The notes: a model not told the origin generated them from the letters alone. A stretch of DNA of 11,411 bases from a virus (IMGVR_UViG_2713896907_000009:1-11411); one strand, 5' to 3'; counted from the first letter of the stretch, positions 2,893 through 11,411 are shown. Program-made: numbers and translations.

Positions 2893-3237
2893 TCAGAACT
2901 CTTCGATGCTCCAGCCACCACCTGCTTTCTTTGGTTTAACCGTTACCCCGATGATTCGGAACGGATACTGATCTGCGGCGACTTTGGTTTTCACCCTGGC
3001 GTCGTCGGTCCAGAAACCTTTCACTTCGTGCAGTTCCATCTCGCCGGTGGCGAGCATCACAGCAAAATCGGGCGTATAGAACGTGTTGTCAGCTAACCGC
3101 AGCTTGATACCCTCAAATCGATACCAGACGATTTCTCCTGCACGTTTACGCAGCTCAAGGTGCTGGCAATACGCAGATTCTGTTTTGTTCATCTGGCCTG
3201 TTTTGAGTCGACCAAGAGCCTGTATCTGTTTTCTCAT
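2893..3237 (-). CDS. DUF1064-like phage protein (114 aa)
   Basis: ORF 2893-3237; pattern ...Y..LELRKRAGEI...YTPDF.V......ELHEVKG......ARVKTKVAADQYPF matches my recollection of the DUF1064 family found beside phage replication genes. SD GAGGT upstream of the ATG lies inside an operator-like palindrome. Confidence 0.6.
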   Translation of the reverse strand: MRKQIQALGRLKTGQMNKTESAYCQHLELRKRAGEIVWYRFEGIKLRLADNTFYTPDFAVMLATGEMELHEVKGFWTDDARVKTKVAADQYPFRIIGVTVKPKKAGGGWSIEEF

Positions 3238-3240
3238 GAT

Positions 3241-3317
3241 TTACCTCTGAGGTAATTAAAAACCACATAAGACATGAAATCAATAGAATTTAGAATATTT
3301 TATTACCCATCAGGTAA
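3241..3317 (-). promoter_or_regulatory. Leftward promoter flanked by two TTACC-N5-GGTAA palindromes (operator-like)
   Basis: Palindromes at 3241-3255 (TTACC TCTGA GGTAA) and 3303-3317 (TTACC CATCA GGTAA). On the minus strand: -35 TTGATT (plus 3283-3278), 17-bp spacer, -10 TTTAAT (plus 3260-3255). One palindrome is 18 nt upstream of the -35; the other abuts the -10 and includes the SD of the 2893-3237 gene. Confidence 0.45.
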
Positions 3318-3354
3318 TTATCGAGGCGTAAAAAAATGCGCTATCGCGCTGGTA

Positions 3355-4140: not shown

Positions 4141-4976
4141 AAGAAATCCTCCCATGCTTCAGGGCTGTTCCAGTGCGGAACGTTGTTATCAGGTAATGTT
4201 GATTGCTTCTGTCTGCTAATCTGCAGCCGCCTTGCCAGCTTCTGCTCCCACTGTGCCTGATGGTATGCCTTACCCTCAGCCATCCAGTAAATTCTGAACT
4301 CTGCAAGTTCCTGTGCCGTTGGCAGACTGTCCAGGTAGATCCCCTGCAATGAGCTTTTCCGAAGAAAGTCATCTGATGGCTGCCATTGTTCATGCATGAC
4401 AAATTTGCCTAATTGCCCTGGCCCACCAGGAGGAACAAAGTTATTCATCACGGCGTTGTTTGCGCCGGGGTCATGAGGCACAGAATCCCCGGCTTTTGTC
4501 CTGCTCTCCCTCTCTTGGTTAAATGACTGGTTATATGACTGGTTCTGGATCCCGTTTTTGGGATCATTCAACATCCCGTTTTTGGGATCATTCAACATCC
4601 CGTTTTTGGGATCATTCAACATCCCGTTTTTGGGTATATTCCCGTTTTCGGGAACATTACCGTTTTCGGGTTCATTGCTCCATTCCCGGTTGCCTTTAAT
4701 GTTCCCGTTTTTGGTTATATTAAGAGAGAAAACCCGCACTCTTTTCGTCGCTCCCTTTCTCTCTCCGGTATCTGAAATAAGCCCCATTTTCATGAGCGAT
4801 ATAAGCCCGGCCTGTACGGTTTTTTTATTCAGGCAAGTGTCTTTAACGAGGCGTTCTATGCTGGGGTAGCAGAGGTTATATTCATCGGCTCTGTCAGCCA
4901 TCGAGAGCAGTATGAGCTTTAATGACGAGCTACCCGGATCTGTCTCCCAGGCCCAATCTGTTGCATGTCTGCTCAT
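4137..4976 (-). CDS. Replication initiator, O-like (N-terminal DNA-binding domain, Asn-rich repeat linker encoded by iterons, C-terminal domain)
   Basis: ORF 4137-4976, ATG 4976 with GGAG SD. Sits immediately upstream of and coupled to the P-like gene. Contains in-frame 8-aa repeats (PKNGMLND x3) encoded by 24-bp direct repeats, as lambda O contains ori. C-terminal region resembles DnaT/O-type replisome-organiser domains (from memory, unverified). Confidence 0.65.
   Translation of the reverse strand: MSRHATDWAWETDPGSSSLKLILLSMADRADEYNLCYPSIERLVKDTCLNKKTVQAGLISLMKMGLISDTGERKGATKRVRVFSLNITKNGNIKGNREWSNEPENGNVPENGNIPKNGMLNDPKNGMLNDPKNGMLNDPKNGIQNQSYNQSFNQERESRTKAGDSVPHDPGANNAVMNNFVPPGGPGQLGKFVMHEQWQPSDDFLRKSSLQGIYLDSLPTAQELAEFRIYWMAEGKAYHQAQWEQKLARRLQISRQKQSTLPDNNVPHWNSPEAWEDFL
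4547..4700. repeat. Iteron array: three perfect 24-bp direct repeats (4561-4632) flanked by degenerate copies; putative phage replication origin inside the O-like gene
   Basis: ggatcattcaacatcccgtttttg repeated exactly at 4561-4584, 4585-4608 and 4609-4632; partial or degenerate copies at 4547-4560 and 4633-4700. Each unit contains the inverted repeat GGGAT/ATCCC. Confidence 0.6.
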
Positions 4977-6332: not shown

Positions 6333-6358
6333 AAGCCGCCTTCTGGCGGCTTTTTTAT
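6333..6358 (+). terminator. Rho-independent terminator downstream of the repressor gene
   Basis: Perfect 8-bp stem aagccgcc / ggcggctt (6333-6340 and 6345-6352), 4-nt loop ttct, followed by a T-tract (TTTTTTATT). Confidence 0.7.
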
Positions 6359-6368
6359 TGCCTATTTG

Positions 6369-6446
6369 ATTACCTATCGGGTAATTTTTTTAACTCATAT
6401 CTATTGACATCAAACCAAATACGCATAATCATTACCTAAACGGTAA
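6369..6446 (+). promoter_or_regulatory. Rightward early promoter (PL-like) flanked by two TTACC-N5-GGTAA operator-like palindromes
   Basis: Sites at 6369-6385 (ATTACC TATCG GGTAAT) and 6432-6446 (TTACC TAAAC GGTAA), plus a GGTAA half-site at 6456-6460 that overlaps the SD of the first gene. Consensus -35 TTGACA at 6404-6409; the best -10 candidate CATAAT (6424-6429) gives a short 14-bp spacer, so the exact -10 is uncertain. Confidence 0.5.
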
Positions 6447-6620: not shown

Positions 6621-6920
6621 ATGAACGTTAATCAGCAGAAAAATCTTCAAAAAATCATGCTGGCATTCGACAAGGACTACCGCCTGTCAGAACAGCTATA
6701 TGACCGACAAGTTGAACTGATTGAGAGCATCCGACTTCATCAACTGTCCTCAACTTTCGACGTTGTAACAGGCAAAGGCGTTCGTCAGGAAGTGCTGGAG
6801 GCTGCTAAAGACAGCCCTGAGTTCGAAGAACTGATGGATGCCTACCGGCGCGAGGCAATGGCAATTATAGCGCGCTGGGATCTGGCGGATCAGCTTGATG
6901 GGCAGAGGGACGCGGCATGA
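6621..6920 (+). CDS. Hypothetical phage protein (99 aa) immediately upstream of exo/bet
   Basis: ORF-track frame 6606-6920; start placed at ATG 6621 (MNVNQQ...) with GGGAGGG SD at 6 nt. Stop overlaps the exonuclease ATG (ATGA). No family recognised. Confidence 0.6.
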   Translation: MNVNQQKNLQKIMLAFDKDYRLSEQLYDRQVELIESIRLHQLSSTFDVVTGKGVRQEVLEAAKDSPEFEELMDAYRREAMAIIARWDLADQLDGQRDAA

Positions 6921-7738
6921 AACCGGGAATTTATTTCGACATCAGCAACGAAGACTACCACGCAGGTGACGGCGTGAGTAAGTCGCAACTGGACATGGTT
7001 GCCAAGAATCCGGCGCTTCTTAAATGGGTTCAGGCAGCACCAGAAGACGAAGAGAAAAAGTCTGCACTGGATATGGGAACCGCATTGCACTGCCTGCTTC
7101 TGGAACCTGGAGAATTCGACAAACGCTTCATCGTTTCACCGAAATTCGATCGTCGGACAAAACAAGGTAAAGCTGACGAAGAAGCATTTCTTCGTGATGT
7201 GGCGGATATGGGTATTACGGTACTTGATGTCGAGCAGTGGCGAAAACTGGAGCTGATGCGTGATAGCGCAATGGCTCATCCGGCGGCACGCTGGATGTTG
7301 GAAGCACCTGGTTACTGCGAAGCATCAATGTACTGGAACGATGAAGAGACGGGTGAGTTGTGCCGAATTCGTCCAGACAAATGGCTGAACGAGCACAACG
7401 TGATCGTCGACGTGAAAAAGGTTGCAGATATGGACCGTTTTGCACGCCACATCGAGGAATTCCGCTACCACGTGCAGGACGCAATGTACCGCGAAGGCGC
7501 AATGAGGGTTACTGGTCAGCCGCATGGTTTTTTCTTTCTTGCCGTGAGCGAAAGCATTGATTGTGGTCGGTATCCGGTACGCGTGTTCGAGCTGGATGCG
7601 CCGGATGTCGATGCCGGGCACGCTCTGTTCCGCCGGGATCTGAATACCTATCACGAATGCCGCATCAACGATGAGTGGGGCGGAGTGGAAATTATTAAAC
7701 GCCCTGACTGGGCACGTAAACAGGATATGTACGTATGA
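6917..7738 (+). CDS. PD-(D/E)XK family exonuclease (phage recombination exonuclease, RecB-like nuclease fold)
   Basis: ORF 6917-7738. Motifs in order: IRPDKW (D), VIVDVKK (D-x-K), QDAMYREG (QxxxY), the arrangement of RecB/Cas4-type PD-(D/E)XK nucleases. Coupled (ATGA) to the downstream Bet-like gene. Confidence 0.7.
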   Translation: MKPGIYFDISNEDYHAGDGVSKSQLDMVAKNPALLKWVQAAPEDEEKKSALDMGTALHCLLLEPGEFDKRFIVSPKFDRRTKQGKADEEAFLRDVADMGITVLDVEQWRKLELMRDSAMAHPAARWMLEAPGYCEASMYWNDEETGELCRIRPDKWLNEHNVIVDVKKVADMDRFARHIEEFRYHVQDAMYREGAMRVTGQPHGFFFLAVSESIDCGRYPVRVFELDAPDVDAGHALFRRDLNTYHECRINDEWGGVEIIKRPDWARKQDMYV

Positions 7739-8616
7739 GCAATGATATCGCAATCACATCACAACCTGGCGCAACTGTAGGTACTGCTGCGGCAATCTTC
7801 AGCCCGGAGGGCATGAATCAACTGGTGCGTTTCGCGGAGTTGATGTCACAAAGCAAAGCGACTGTACCGAAACATCTTGAAGGCAAACCTGCCGATTGCC
7901 TGGCGGTGACCATGCAGGCGGCACAGTGGGGAATGAACCCGTTCGCCGTGGCGCAGAAAACGCATGTGGTAAACGGAACGTTAGGCTACGAAGCACAGTT
8001 GGTAAACGCGGTCGTATCCTCTTCCAGCCTGCTGGCGACACGCCTGAATTATCGCTGGAGCGGTGACTGGTCGAATGTTAACGGCAAAACAGATAAATCA
8101 CCGAATCTGACGGTAACTGTGTCAGCAGTTCTTAAAGGAGAAGCAGAACCACGTGAGCTTACCATCAGTATGGCGCAAGCCGGAGTGCGTAACTCTCCAT
8201 TGTGGGAACAGGATCCGCGCCAGCAGCTTGCCTATCTTTGCACGAAACGATGGGCTCGCCTGCACGCTCCTGATGTACTTCTCGGTGTTTACACCCCTGA
8301 AGAATTACAGGAAACGGCACCGCGCGTTGAGCGAGACATTACTCCGCAAACAACTACGGCTGCGGGAATGAATAGTCTGATCAACGCTAAAACAGTGAAA
8401 AAGCCTGATGAGCAAACGCGTAAAGCGGATAGCCGTGATCCAGAAGAAATGCTGATGGCCTTTACCAGCGCAGCAATGAATTACAGCACTGTCTCCGAAC
8501 TGGATAAGGCTTACAAATACATTGCACAAAAACTTTCAGATGATGACGAACTGCTGGCAAAAGCCACCGACGTTTACAGCGTTCGTCGGGAAGAATTAAA
8601 CGAAACATCTATGTAA
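7735..8616 (+). CDS. Single-strand annealing protein, Bet/RecT (Red-beta) family
   Basis: ORF 7735-8616. Segments GMNPFAVAQKTHVV, PLWEQDPRQQLAYLCTKRWARL and ERDITP parallel lambda Bet as I recall it (GLNPWTKEIYAF, PWQSHPKRMLRHKAMIQCARL, ERDITP). Sits directly downstream of a nuclease, as in exo/bet and recE/recT pairs. Confidence 0.75.
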   Translation: MSNDIAITSQPGATVGTAAAIFSPEGMNQLVRFAELMSQSKATVPKHLEGKPADCLAVTMQAAQWGMNPFAVAQKTHVVNGTLGYEAQLVNAVVSSSSLLATRLNYRWSGDWSNVNGKTDKSPNLTVTVSAVLKGEAEPRELTISMAQAGVRNSPLWEQDPRQQLAYLCTKRWARLHAPDVLLGVYTPEELQETAPRVERDITPQTTTAAGMNSLINAKTVKKPDEQTRKADSRDPEEMLMAFTSAAMNYSTVSELDKAYKYIAQKLSDDDELLAKATDVYSVRREELNETSM

Positions 8617-8665
8617 CCACCACCGCGGCGCCACGCGCGCCGCACTGCAACCAAGAGAGGTATTT

Positions 8666-8914
8666 ATGAAAGGTGCATTAGGTAAGAAGGAACTCCTGGC
8701 GGTGGTGCCACTGTCATGGAGCACTATCGACCGTATGGAGCGCGCAGGGGAATTTCCTAAACGCTGGTATATCACCGATAAACGCTGCGCATGGAACCGT
8801 GACGAAGTTGAGCGTTGGCTTGATGAACGTCAAGCAGCAAGCCCGGCAGAGTTCCAGGGTAAAAAACCTCCTGTTCAGCAACGTGTATATCGTCCCGTGA
8901 GCAACGCTGCATGA
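8666..8914 (+). CDS. AlpA/excisionase-like small HTH protein (82 aa)
   Basis: ORF 8666-8914, SD GAGAGG. Segment KKELLAVVPLSWSTIDRMERAGEFPKRWYI...WNRDEVERWL has the layout of AlpA/Xis-type winged-helix excisionases. Lies between the recombination genes and the integrase. Confidence 0.6.
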   Translation: MKGALGKKELLAVVPLSWSTIDRMERAGEFPKRWYITDKRCAWNRDEVERWLDERQAASPAEFQGKKPPVQQRVYRPVSNAA

Positions 8915-9023
8915 GTGCGCTGCTAAGGCACTGGAGCAAATGGTCAGGATGGTACTTATTCCTAGCCTCTGTTTCAGCATGGCTTTATCTGCTGGCATTA
9001 ATTTTCAGAGAGGGTTGGATTAA

Positions 9024-9323
9024 GTGAGAAAGTTAAGCCGACTTGAAAAATATCACATGAACAAGGTTTCAATGCGCAGCCCTTCAAAGGTTGTTGCCGT
9101 TACTCCTGCGGCGATAGAGATCGAAAAACGCGCGATTGAAAGAGAGAAAAAAGGGCAGTTCCGCATTGCCGCCCACCTTTGGCTTCAGTGTATGGATGTT
9201 GCTTCTGGTGATGTTGAGCGTGCAAGGATCGCGGTTCGCAGGAACCAATGTATCACAAAAGGTAACGGCCTTCGCCGTGGAGACTATAGCGGCATAGGAT
9301 GTTGTGGGGTGGTTTATGACTAA
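9024..9323 (+). CDS. Small regulator-like protein, PerC/ANR-like (tentative)
   Basis: ORF 9024-9323 with GTG start; alternative ATGs at 9059 and 9074. Segment AIEREKKGQFRIAAHLWLQC...ARIAVRRNQC resembles the conserved core of PerC/ANR-family small regulators as I recall it. Start codon not certain. Confidence 0.4.
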   Translation: MRKLSRLEKYHMNKVSMRSPSKVVAVTPAAIEIEKRAIEREKKGQFRIAAHLWLQCMDVASGDVERARIAVRRNQCITKGNGLRRGDYSGIGCCGVVYD

Positions 9324-9966
9324 GAAATACACACTAATCTATGCAGATCCACCCTGGGTATACCGGGACAAAGCCGCAGATGGTAATCGCGGTGCCAGTT
9401 TTAAATATCCGGTTATGAGTGTGCTGGATATCTGCCGCCTTCCTGTGTGGGATTTGGCCGATGAAAACTGTCTGTTGGCCATGTGGTGGGTGCCAACACA
9501 ACCACTCGAAGCACTAAAAGTTGTTGAAGCCTGGGGATTCCGTCTGATGACCATGAAGGGCTTCACGTGGATAAAATGTGGTAGTCGACAACCAGATAAA
9601 CTGGTTATGGGTATGGGTCACATGACTCGCGCCAATAGTGAAGATTGCCTGTTTGCAGTAAAGGGAAAACTACCTCCGCGCATTAATGCAGGGATCGTTC
9701 AGTCATTTACCGCACCGCGGCTTGAGCATTCAAGAAAACCAGATGTCGTTCGTGAAAAACTTGTGCAATTGTTAGGCGATGTTTCTCGCATTGAACTGTT
9801 CGCCCGCCAGACGTCTCATGGCTTCGATGTTTGGGGTAATCAGTGCGAAGACCCGGCAGTGCAACTACACCCTGGATACGCGTTGGATATTGGCGGATTA
9901 ACAAATGCATTCGGCAATGCTCCGCTGTCACCAACAGACAACCAGGGGCGGGAGCATGCAGCATGA
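9316..9966 (+). CDS. MT-A70 family N6-adenine DNA methyltransferase (orphan; no restriction partner in window)
   Basis: ORF-track frame 9304-9966; start placed at ATG 9316 (MTKKYTLIYADPPW...) with GGGGTGG SD. Contains the catalytic DPPW motif near the N-terminus, characteristic of MT-A70/Dam-like phage adenine methylases. Confidence 0.75.
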   Translation: MTKKYTLIYADPPWVYRDKAADGNRGASFKYPVMSVLDICRLPVWDLADENCLLAMWWVPTQPLEALKVVEAWGFRLMTMKGFTWIKCGSRQPDKLVMGMGHMTRANSEDCLFAVKGKLPPRINAGIVQSFTAPRLEHSRKPDVVREKLVQLLGDVSRIELFARQTSHGFDVWGNQCEDPAVQLHPGYALDIGGLTNAFGNAPLSPTDNQGREHAA

Positions 9967-10157
9967 ACAGGGCATCACCAGCAGATTTAAGGAAATACCT
10001 TGAAACTGCAAAAATGCTTGCACACAGCGGGATCAGGTTTGTTCCAATTCCCGCTGTCACTGATGCTGAATTTGCAACGCTGTCAGCAATATTCGCAGAC
10101 AAAATTGAATCACTGGCATCAGAAGCCGAGATGGAAGAAAATCAGCAGAATAATTAA
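9963..10157 (+). CDS. Small hypothetical protein (64 aa), translationally coupled to the methyltransferase
   Basis: Internal ATG of ORF 9843-10157 at 9963 overlaps the methyltransferase stop (ATGA); product MNRASPADLRKYLETAKMLAHSGIRF... has an acidic C-terminus. The longer ORF-track version would lie wholly inside the methyltransferase gene in another frame. Confidence 0.45.
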   Translation: MNRASPADLRKYLETAKMLAHSGIRFVPIPAVTDAEFATLSAIFADKIESLASEAEMEENQQNN

Positions 10158-10160
10158 ACG

Positions 10161-11411
10161 TTATTCCCCCGCCATCCACTTCTCAAACTTCGACGGGGAG
10201 AACGGAATCAGATCCGTATGCTCCCCGTTAATCCAGGAATCAATCATATCGGCCCACTGCTGCAACATGTAGGCGCGCTGTCTTGCGTATTCCGCTTTGT
10301 TATATACGGCGCGCACACCTTTCTGCTCATGTGCCAGAGCCTTTTCAATCCAGTCTGAAGGATAACCAGCCTCATGCAACAACGTACTTGCTGTACGGCG
10401 CATATCATGTACAGTGAAGTCCTGAATATGCTCACCATCTTCATTTATTATTTTCACCGTTCTGTCGATCAGAGAGTTCAGCGCGGCATTAGATAATGGC
10501 TTCCGGAAGTTGTAACGACCAGGAACCAGATATTCACTTCCACCAGCGCACATCTGCAACCCGACCAATATATCCTGTGCCTGTTTAGGCAGGTAAATAA
10601 CGTGCGCCCGGCTTCCCTTCATGCGGTCTGAAGGAATTGTCCATGTCCATTTTTTAAAATCTATTTCGTCCCACGTTGCATTAGTGAATTCGCCCTTACG
10701 AACCATAGTGATAAGCACCAGCTTTAAAGCCAGTTTCATAGTGCCCATAGCACCAATGGCATCCAGTGTGCGGAAGAACAGGCCAATTTCTTCTGGTGTC
10801 AGTGTTCGCTCTCGTGGTTTAAATATGGCGATAGACGAAGGTTTAATGTCAGCCGCAGGATTAAACAAACCATGACCACGGTCATTGGCGTGACGGTATA
10901 CGCTGCTGATGATCTCCCTGGCCTGTACTGCTGTTGCCCGACCACCGCGTTCGACAATCCGGTCACACAAATCACGAACCATCGATGTGGTAATTTCAGC
11001 CATCATTTTGTTGCCAAGAACCGGAAGTATGTCACGGTCGATCACCGCCAGCTTCATTGCGCGGGTACTGTCAGCCAGGATGACGTGTTTCATATAACTG
11101 TCGGTATGTACCGCAAACGTCTCGGCACCACGAATCTTTTTAATACCGTCACGTTTAGCCGCAGCCGGTGACTGGCCTGCTTTAAGCAGCTTCTTTGCAG
11201 CAATCAGTTCTTCCCGCGCTTCTGCCAGGCTGATACCGTCACGCCCATACTGCCCGATTACCAGTGTTTCGCGGCGACCGTTGATACGGTAGTCATAGCG
11301 AAACGAGACCGTACCTGACGTAAGCACAGCTACATACAGCCCGTCACGATCGGAAACTTTGTACAGTTTGTCCTGTGGCTTGAGGTTCTTTAATTTTGTA
11401 TCGGTAAGCAC
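10161..11411 (-). CDS. int: Tyrosine site-specific integrase (P4-type phage integrase family); N-terminus at or beyond the window edge
   Basis: 416-codon minus-strand frame reaching the last base of the window (apparent GTG at 11411, may be truncated). N-terminal LTDTKLKNLKP...DGLYV and C-terminal HDMRRTASTLL ... ALAH....VRAVYNKAEY (HxxR and catalytic Tyr region) match P4-like integrases. Confidence 0.85.
   Translation of the reverse strand: MLTDTKLKNLKPQDKLYKVSDRDGLYVAVLTSGTVSFRYDYRINGRRETLVIGQYGRDGISLAEAREELIAAKKLLKAGQSPAAAKRDGIKKIRGAETFAVHTDSYMKHVILADSTRAMKLAVIDRDILPVLGNKMMAEITTSMVRDLCDRIVERGGRATAVQAREIISSVYRHANDRGHGLFNPAADIKPSSIAIFKPRERTLTPEEIGLFFRTLDAIGAMGTMKLALKLVLITMVRKGEFTNATWDEIDFKKWTWTIPSDRMKGSRAHVIYLPKQAQDILVGLQMCAGGSEYLVPGRYNFRKPLSNAALNSLIDRTVKIINEDGEHIQDFTVHDMRRTASTLLHEAGYPSDWIEKALAHEQKGVRAVYNKAEYARQRAYMLQQWADMIDSWINGEHTDLIPFSPSKFEKWMAGE

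Follow-up and report, generated by a model that had tools for sequence, protein, structure and literature searches.

Integrase-proximal genes of a phiV10/epsilon15-type Escherichia coli prophage, including an orphan MT-A70 methyltransferase and a PerC-family regulator, as a probable end of the early-left operon

In Stx phages, the MT-A70 methyltransferase M.EcoPA8orf6770P was almost inactive on DNA when purified alone, dam- DNA included, and when bound 1:1 to PNB-2, a wHTH protein encoded upstream, its preferred substrates were 16S rRNA and 30S subunits (PMC10810198). The M.EcoPA8orf6770P-PNB-2 complex increased both spontaneous induction and virulence, an effect which depended on DPPW, and the STEC-type C-terminal ~27 residues of the enzyme were proposed as needed for PNB-2 binding (PMC10810198). 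According to a citation in PMC10810198 and a table entry in PMC6602927, the related M.EcoGV methylates GATC in vivo when overproduced. Orf63, a protein of the exo-xis region, is a non-essential dimer in lambda and Phi24B with no partner reported, and its deletion delayed and weakened the induction of both phages (PMC5575149, PMC10869804). Pch, the EHEC homologue of PerC, is an anti-H-NS factor which displaces H-NS at LEE1 (PMC4764244). Within the PerC family, PerC and Pch are the only proteins known to activate H-NS-silenced promoters (LEE1). The gene block described below is also known already, since it has been annotated for years in the phages phiV10 and epsilon15.

Here, we analyzed positions 8666-10157 of an 11,411-nt stretch of phage DNA (the whole stretch is referred to as the window), and we consider it fairly probable that this block closes the early-left (pL) operon, on the integrase side, in an E. 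coli prophage of the phiV10/epsilon15 type (Uetakevirus). The window is a prophage early region, in which a repressor, a PDDEXK exonuclease, RecT, lambda-P-like and DnaT-domain replication proteins, a DUF1064 protein and an Ea22-like protein are encoded. By sequence comparison, 8617-10160 was 98% identical to phage phiV10 and its relatives at the nucleotide level, with the gene order of phiV10, and among 5426 complete E. coli genomes the block was found in 537 (~10%), at 95-99% identity. Its ORFs all lie on one strand and fill the interval from recT (7735-8616) to the gene of a P4-type tyrosine integrase on the minus strand (10161-11411; Pfam Arm-DNA-bind_3, Phage_int_M and Phage_integrase), which is convergent with the operon.

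The block consists of five plus-strand genes, which overlap at all four junctions in the raw sequence. An AlpA-family protein of 82 aa (8666-8914), predicted as excisionase or recombination directionality factor, is joined by an ATGA (8911-8914) to a single-pass membrane peptide of 38 aa (8911-9027), and this by a GTGA (9024-9027) to a PerC-family small regulator of 99 aa with a GTG start (9024-9323). An 8-nt overlap (9316-9323) leads to an orphan MT-A70 (beta-class, DPPW) N6-adenine methyltransferase of 216 aa (9316-9966), and a second ATGA (9963-9966) to an acidic protein of 64 aa of the lambda Orf63 family (DUF1382; 9963-10157), the stop codon of which is 3 nt apart from that of the integrase gene. 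The dN/dS values against epsilon15 and Tyrion were 0.03-0.15 for alpA, the peptide gene, perC and the methyltransferase gene, therefore these four are real, constrained coding genes. The initial annotation had listed four ORFs, all of which were real and matched the Pfam families AlpA, PerC, MT-A70 and DUF1382, but it had missed the membrane peptide. It had also put perC and the methyltransferase gene in one unit and coupled the latter to the 64-aa ORF, in agreement with their common orientation and the overlaps given above. No known RNA was found by Rfam in the whole window, and a repeat search over 8500-10300 gave only short repeats at chance level.

The AlpA, peptide, PerC and MT-A70 genes were kept in this order in epsilon15 (Salmonella), Tyrion (Enterobacter) and PAS61 (E. 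coli), some of them with small inserts (gp30 in epsilon15; DUF1317 and a wHTH protein in Tyrion). For the last slot, 80 IMG/VR loci were surveyed with a methyltransferase 97-99% identical to that of the window; an Orf63-like gene was found in ~49 of them, a NinI-type Ser/Thr phosphatase gene in ~25 and a third cassette (an 82-aa ORF plus a 216-aa ORF) in 4. The whole block had been described before as an accessory island. Since four genes are conserved across Uetakeviruses of E. coli, Salmonella and Enterobacter and the last slot is swapped, this term fits the final slot only.

A pL-like early-left promoter with operators was located at 6370-6446 on the plus strand by promoter/terminator scan and reading of the sequence, which places the block ~2.2-3.7 kb downstream. 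The promoter comprises a -35 TTGACA (6404-6409), a 17-nt spacer and a -10 AATCAT (6427-6432); two TTACC-N5-GGTAA palindromes (6370-6384 and 6432-6446), with the consensus that the annotated repressor-binding sites of epsilon15 also show, flank and overlap it, and the terminator of the repressor gene (6333-6352) lies upstream. A plus-strand scan from this promoter to 10157 found neither a sigma-70-like promoter nor an intrinsic terminator. With the promoter and operators upstream and no internal promoter or terminator found, the five genes are best read, from these consensus motifs, as the distal end of a repressor-controlled early-left operon, and the block should be silent in an uninduced lysogen. 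Between recT and alpA there is a GC-rich hairpin with no T-run (8625-8643, plus strand), at the place where a 'transcriptional pausing' stem-loop is annotated in epsilon15; RNA folding of 8610-8670 gave -17.3 kcal/mol (z = -1.75), weakly better than shuffled sequences. Judged by its sequence context, the block reads as an early lytic or induction module, the counterpart of the lambda exo-xis region, and not as a lysogenic-conversion island. A weak or stationary-phase promoter may be present inside the block, like the internal promoter reported upstream of gp6-gp5 in phiPA8 (PMC10810198).

The first product had been called excisionase-like, and it matched Pfam AlpA (PF05930; E 3e-5, 24.2 bits, cutoff 21), PHROG 66 'excisionase and transcriptional regulator' (E 2e-16) and PDB 8c3t (E 2e-11). 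It is a homologue of epsilon15 gp33 (dN/dS 0.03-0.06), and the linkage of AlpA proteins to a tyrosine integrase was found here too, with the P4-type integrase 1.25 kb downstream of alpA. Family and position thus mark 8666-8914 as a predicted excisionase, which would turn the convergent integrase towards excision. The membrane peptide, annotated in both phiV10 (p35) and epsilon15 (gp32), matched PHROG 17484 over 38 of 38 positions (E 3e-27), with dN/dS of 0.10-0.15.

The 64-aa protein at the other end, which had been taken as unknown, is a homologue of lambda Orf63. It matched Pfam DUF1382 (PF07131) over the full length (E 9e-28, 96.7 bits, cutoff 27), lambda Orf63 with 48% identity over 62 aa (E 1e-19) and the Orf63 NMR structure (PDB 8dsb, E 6e-12). 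By analogy with lambda and Phi24B, where Orf63 speeds and strengthens induction, it would be a small dimeric factor with the same effect. Neither lambda nor Phi24B, which has two DUF1382 copies, pairs this family with a methyltransferase. Regarding the published 'PNB-2 + methyltransferase' construct p-M.EcoPA8F2, its reverse primer was an exact match to the 3' end of the DUF1382 ORF in one related Stx phage (L004), and its forward primer matched another (L003). Since the primers span the DUF1382 ORF in related Stx phages, the construct probably encoded an Orf63-like protein too.

The methyltransferase matched Pfam MT-A70 (PF05063) over profile positions 1-172 of 172 (E 5e-22, 79.1 bits, cutoff 23.9). 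Its DPPW motif, noted before, lies near the N-terminus (D11-P12-P13-W14) and was invariant in an alignment of 7 homologues; the dN/dS was 0.09, and homologue alignments favoured ATG 9316 as the start over the first possible one, GTG 9304. The orphan status assigned to it was upheld, as Pfam and PHROG searches found no nuclease-like ORF in the window, the neighbouring ORFs all falling into other families, and no cognate restriction endonuclease is annotated in the 39-kb phiV10 genome. Residues 1-187 were 83% identical to the Stx-phage enzyme in P13803, at the same locus L003, in which both the terminator sequence and the forward-primer site for PNB-2 of Gong et al. 2023 (PMC10810198) are found. 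The core identity and these matches therefore place the window enzyme close to M.EcoPA8orf6770P and also to M.EcoGV, described as 'highly similar' to M.EcoPA8orf6770P. Beyond residue 187, the C-terminal tail (~29 aa) was unrelated to that of the Stx-phage enzyme, and no tblastn match to PNB-2 was found in the window. The PerC-like upstream neighbour was rejected as a PNB-2 equivalent since similarity between the two was not found, and Tyrion gp30, the wHTH protein upstream of the Tyrion methyltransferase, showed marginal similarity to PNB-2 (E 0.05). Phage T1 Dam was likewise rejected as a family member fixing GATC specificity, for it belongs to PF05869 and has no similarity. The best PDB sequence matches were chains named 'MT-a70 family protein' (7f4r, E 3e-13), which we take to be Tetrahymena MTA1 DNA 6mA enzymes, followed by METTL3 (4e-6).

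Since PNB-2 is absent, our guess is that the methyltransferase acts mainly on DNA, and we lean with low confidence to this substrate. The enzyme would mainly modify rapidly replicating phage DNA (Dam-like, at GATC or with relaxed specificity), with rRNA as the main alternative target. Because purified M.EcoPA8orf6770P was almost inactive on DNA, a DNA substrate is not secure. Judged by its closest characterised relative, the enzyme may control prophage induction, possibly via 16S rRNA (PMC10810198).

We regard it as unlikely that the window enzyme is a 16S rRNA m6A writer like the phiPA8 holoenzyme, raising spontaneous induction via altered translation with no partner or with a small one encoded by a neighbour (PerC-like or Orf63-like). 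Its core is 83% identical to an enzyme which prefers 16S rRNA and 30S subunits with PNB-2 and needs DPPW for the induction and virulence phenotype, but PNB-2 is absent, the PerC-like protein has no similarity to it, and where the Stx-phage enzyme has its proposed PNB-2-binding tail, the window enzyme has an unrelated one. Both neighbours are translationally coupled to the methyltransferase, but other genes separate perC from it in epsilon15 and Tyrion. The p-M.EcoPA8F2 primers, as mapped on related Stx phages, span the DUF1382 ORF and so allow an Orf63-like contribution, but in ~30 of the 80 loci the same methyltransferase (97-99%) has a NinI-type phosphatase or another cassette instead of Orf63-like, and lambda and Phi24B have DUF1382 with no methyltransferase. 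Moreover, the published phiPA8 work never named the modified rRNA base.

It also seems improbable that the orphan methyltransferase serves anti-restriction, by pre-methylating phage DNA so that it escapes from host restriction. Such a role is consistent with the orphan status, the predicted early expression, the listing of similar enzymes as GATC methylases, the wide distribution of the family (517 phage records, unrelated phages included) and the strong PADLOC match to the type II methyltransferase model MTase_II (E 7e-78). In PADLOC, generic type II methyltransferase models alone hit the block, and its other four proteins had no match. If the target is GATC, it is already methylated by a dam+ host, therefore the phage would gain only where replication is faster than Dam or the host is dam-deficient; the near inactivity of the purified homologue on DNA also argues against this role. 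A literature search for follow-ups or methylomes of MT-A70 phage enzymes found nothing further.

The product of 9024-9323 had been named PerC/ANR-like, of which the PerC part stood. It matched Pfam PerC (PF06069) over profile positions 5-50 of 90 (31.7 bits, cutoff 22.6) and PHROG 868 (E 2e-61), and its match to the ANR family NF033650 (22.8 bits) was below the NCBIfam cutoff of 32. Pairwise comparison with EPEC PerC gave 40% identity over 60 aa (E 2e-10) and hhalign a probability of 95%; at the sequence level the protein is a genuine PerC homologue, and homology searches that could have undone the assignment upheld it. Database tblastn confined the subfamily to Uetakevirus-like phages and prophages of Enterobacterales; the view that there is no link to real PerC, taken from tblastn matching Uetakevirus-type genes alone, was overturned by the direct pairwise and hhalign comparisons. 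In the alignment, epsilon15 gp31 and Tyrion gp32 have a conserved N-terminus in common with it, in favour of the GTG start at 9024. In the AF2 model (pLDDT 75), three helices form a TPR-like core, followed by a short C-terminal hairpin, and an HTH is absent, which fits action through protein contacts. By analogy with Pch, a helical regulator of the PerC family would relieve H-NS silencing via such contacts and not via an HTH, and relief of H-NS silencing is probably what this protein does.

True PerC homology, together with the prophage-encoded Pch proteins which regulate host genes, could suggest that lysogens produce the PerC-like protein and that it reprogrammes virulence or surface genes of the host, in the way of PerC and Pch at LEE, but we consider such lysogenic conversion very unlikely. 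The perC gene is embedded by overlapping stops and starts in a repressor-controlled operon, and no promoter of its own was found by the scan. Related proteins are conserved in phages of Salmonella, Enterobacter and Klebsiella, hosts without LEE, and the known conversion gene of the phage (oac) lies elsewhere. Phage ZX5, the block of which is 97.9% identical to that of the window, altered neither adhesion nor virulence on lysogeny (PMC9782041). The initial annotation had singled out the block as the likeliest place for lysogenic conversion or anti-defence; this expectation is not supported, in view of the pL-like operon position, the null phenotype of ZX5 lysogens and the purely generic PADLOC match.

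Most improbable is that a coupled neighbour, the Orf63-like dimer or the PerC-like helical protein, steers the Uetakevirus MT-A70 enzyme to its RNA or DNA target in place of PNB-2, so that the long-enigmatic lambda Orf63 family, or else the PerC proteins of phages, would have the biochemical function of a methyltransferase specificity subunit; the published phiPA8 'holoenzyme' primers, which also span a DUF1382 ORF when mapped on related Stx phages, are a hint of it, but the partners are freely swapped or absent in close relatives, and this evidence argues against an obligate pairing of the methyltransferase with either neighbour.

With the block placed at the end of the early-left operon, only release of the repressor from the TTACC-N5-GGTAA operators would allow the five overlapping genes to be transcribed after the recombination genes, and their products would act in infection or induction, in excision, tuning of early expression and nucleic-acid methylation, and not in the quiescent lysogen. 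The locus is of modest value as a natural comparison for the Stx-phage MT-A70 enzymes, for it combines their catalytic core with an adjoining Orf63 homologue, lacks PNB-2 and belongs to a non-Stx phage that is tractable. Such a comparison could help to settle whether DNA, rRNA or both are the target of phage MT-A70 enzymes, and to show the roles of Orf63-family and phage PerC-family proteins in induction.

Among known systems, phiV10 p36-p32 (NC_007804) has the same five genes in the same order with a convergent P4-type integrase. Its annotation starts the PerC gene at an internal ATG (= 9051), whereas conservation favours GTG 9024, and gives exo and recT as a single fused ORF, which are two overlapping ORFs in the window. 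In epsilon15 (gp33-gp28), the AlpA/excisionase, 38-aa peptide, PerC-like and MT-A70 genes stand in the same order with 76-78% protein identity and a convergent integrase adjoining; epsilon15 differs in an extra 35-aa gp30, a shorter methyltransferase (192 aa) without the tail, and an unrelated membrane protein, gp28, as the last gene in place of Orf63-like. The Stx-phage enzymes M.EcoPA8orf6770P-PNB-2 and M.EcoGV share the DPPW core with the window enzyme at 83% identity, and in the window as in the Stx phage the methyltransferase gene is overlapped at its 3' end by a DUF1382 gene. In contrast to the M.EcoPA8orf6770P-PNB-2 system, which belongs to Sepvirinae, the window enzyme is found in Uetakevirus, lacks PNB-2, ends in the unrelated ~29-aa tail and has a PerC-like gene upstream instead.

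The PerC-like protein shares a ~60-residue core at 40% identity with EPEC PerC and EHEC Pch, and it is alike in small size and mobile-element origin. It differs from them in an extra 33-residue N-terminus and a conserved GVVYD C-terminus; its gene lies inside a lytic operon, most hosts have no LEE, and its activity is a predicted one. With the AlpA (CP4-57) type excisionases that accompany P4-type integrases, the window protein has the Pfam and PHROG excisionase families and the adjacency of an integrase in common, whereas here the integrase is convergent, four genes away from alpA, and excision activity is predicted. The lambda exo-xis region (orf60a, orf63, orf61, ea22, ea8.5) likewise lies at the promoter-distal end of the pL operon, flanked by the recombination genes and xis/int, and its genes are non-essential modulators of induction. 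Two of them have homologues in this phage group, orf63 as the DUF1382 gene in the window and orf60a as the DUF1317 gene in the relative Tyrion. Lambda has no MT-A70, PerC or AlpA-type Xis, its int is co-directional whereas the window integrase is convergent, and the Ea22-like gene, which in lambda belongs to the exo-xis region, lies on the rightward arm in the window.

The slot between the methyltransferase gene and the convergent integrase gene (positions 9967-10160 of the window) was compared with loci L006, L008 and L088, which carry variants of the last position before the integrase. Its contents varied, being an Orf63-like gene, a NinI-type Ser/Thr phosphatase gene, or an 82-aa ORF together with a 216-aa ORF, and the methyltransferase ahead of all three variants was 97-99% identical. 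The slot is an exchange hotspot.

At the other side of the methyltransferase, the stretch of 110 nt that seems empty between the genes for the excisionase and PerC was found to be occupied by a gene for a 38-aa membrane peptide (8911-9027, + strand), which is also kept in epsilon15 and Tyrion with a dN/dS of 0.10-0.15. Among the database proteins related to the window PerC, P0090 consists of the 38-aa peptide joined to PerC, and P0117 of the N-terminal half of PerC joined to a DUF1382 domain; both look like deletion fusions, and the latter type of join would imply that the methyltransferase was lost. The PerC and MT-A70 genes were also present, with 95% protein identity, on two 41-kb E. coli "plasmids" (NZ_CP079771.1 and NZ_CP079768.1), and these records probably represent genomes of phiV10-like phages that were assembled as circular episomes.

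The published phiPA8 primers for PNB-2, the winged-HTH (wHTH) partner encoded upstream of the MT-A70 methyltransferase, plus the methyltransferase itself (PMC10810198) were mapped onto the related Stx-phage loci L003 (3073-3090) and L004 (4281-4299 and 4700-4721). The amplified segment begins at the TTG start of PNB-2, which lies 25 codons 5' of ORF08 as annotated, and runs as far as the DUF1382 stop codon, and the reverse primer site of construct F1 lies at the end of the DUF1627 gene. Therefore, the phiPA8 constructs probably contained more ORFs than the paper discusses.

In Tyrion (L086), a 75-aa winged-HTH protein, gp30 (2284-2511), with Pfam HTH_24/MarR_2 matches is encoded upstream of the methyltransferase; this placement recalls the Stx-phage PNB-2, although the sequence similarity is marginal. 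Downstream of the methyltransferase gene lies the gene for the 68-aa gp28 (3145-3351), which is HTH-like by eye only and gave no Pfam match. Outside the window, phiV10 (L091 38492-38773) also encodes an ASCH-domain protein. Since binding of modified nucleic acids has been proposed for the ASCH fold, this protein could be a reader of the methyltransferase product.

Further upstream in the window, perfect tandem repeats of 24 nt × 3.6 and, after them, repeats of 18 nt × 3.1 (4549-4676) lie within the DnaT-domain replication-initiator gene, coding for a repeated NGMLNDPK motif, and are probably origin iterons. A pL-like promoter and two TTACC-N5-GGTAA operator palindromes were located at 6370-6446, and the palindromes agree with the epsilon15 repressor-site consensus. 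The exonuclease (6917-7738) and RecT (7735-8616) are encoded by two overlapping ORFs as in epsilon15 and PAS61, whereas one RecE-RecT fusion ORF is annotated in phiV10 (L001 4240-6000); this "fusion" may be a frameshift or sequencing difference. Between recT and alpA, a 7-bp GC hairpin without T-run (8625-8643), only weakly better than shuffled sequences (z = -1.75), occupies the same position as the annotated "pausing" stem-loop of epsilon15.

The early-left operon and the integrase gene end in convergent stops spaced by only 3 nt (10155-10163), and no terminator was found there. Transcripts running through from pL would be antisense to int, and such read-through may control the integrase, a putative arrangement loosely resembling the sib retroregulation of lambda.
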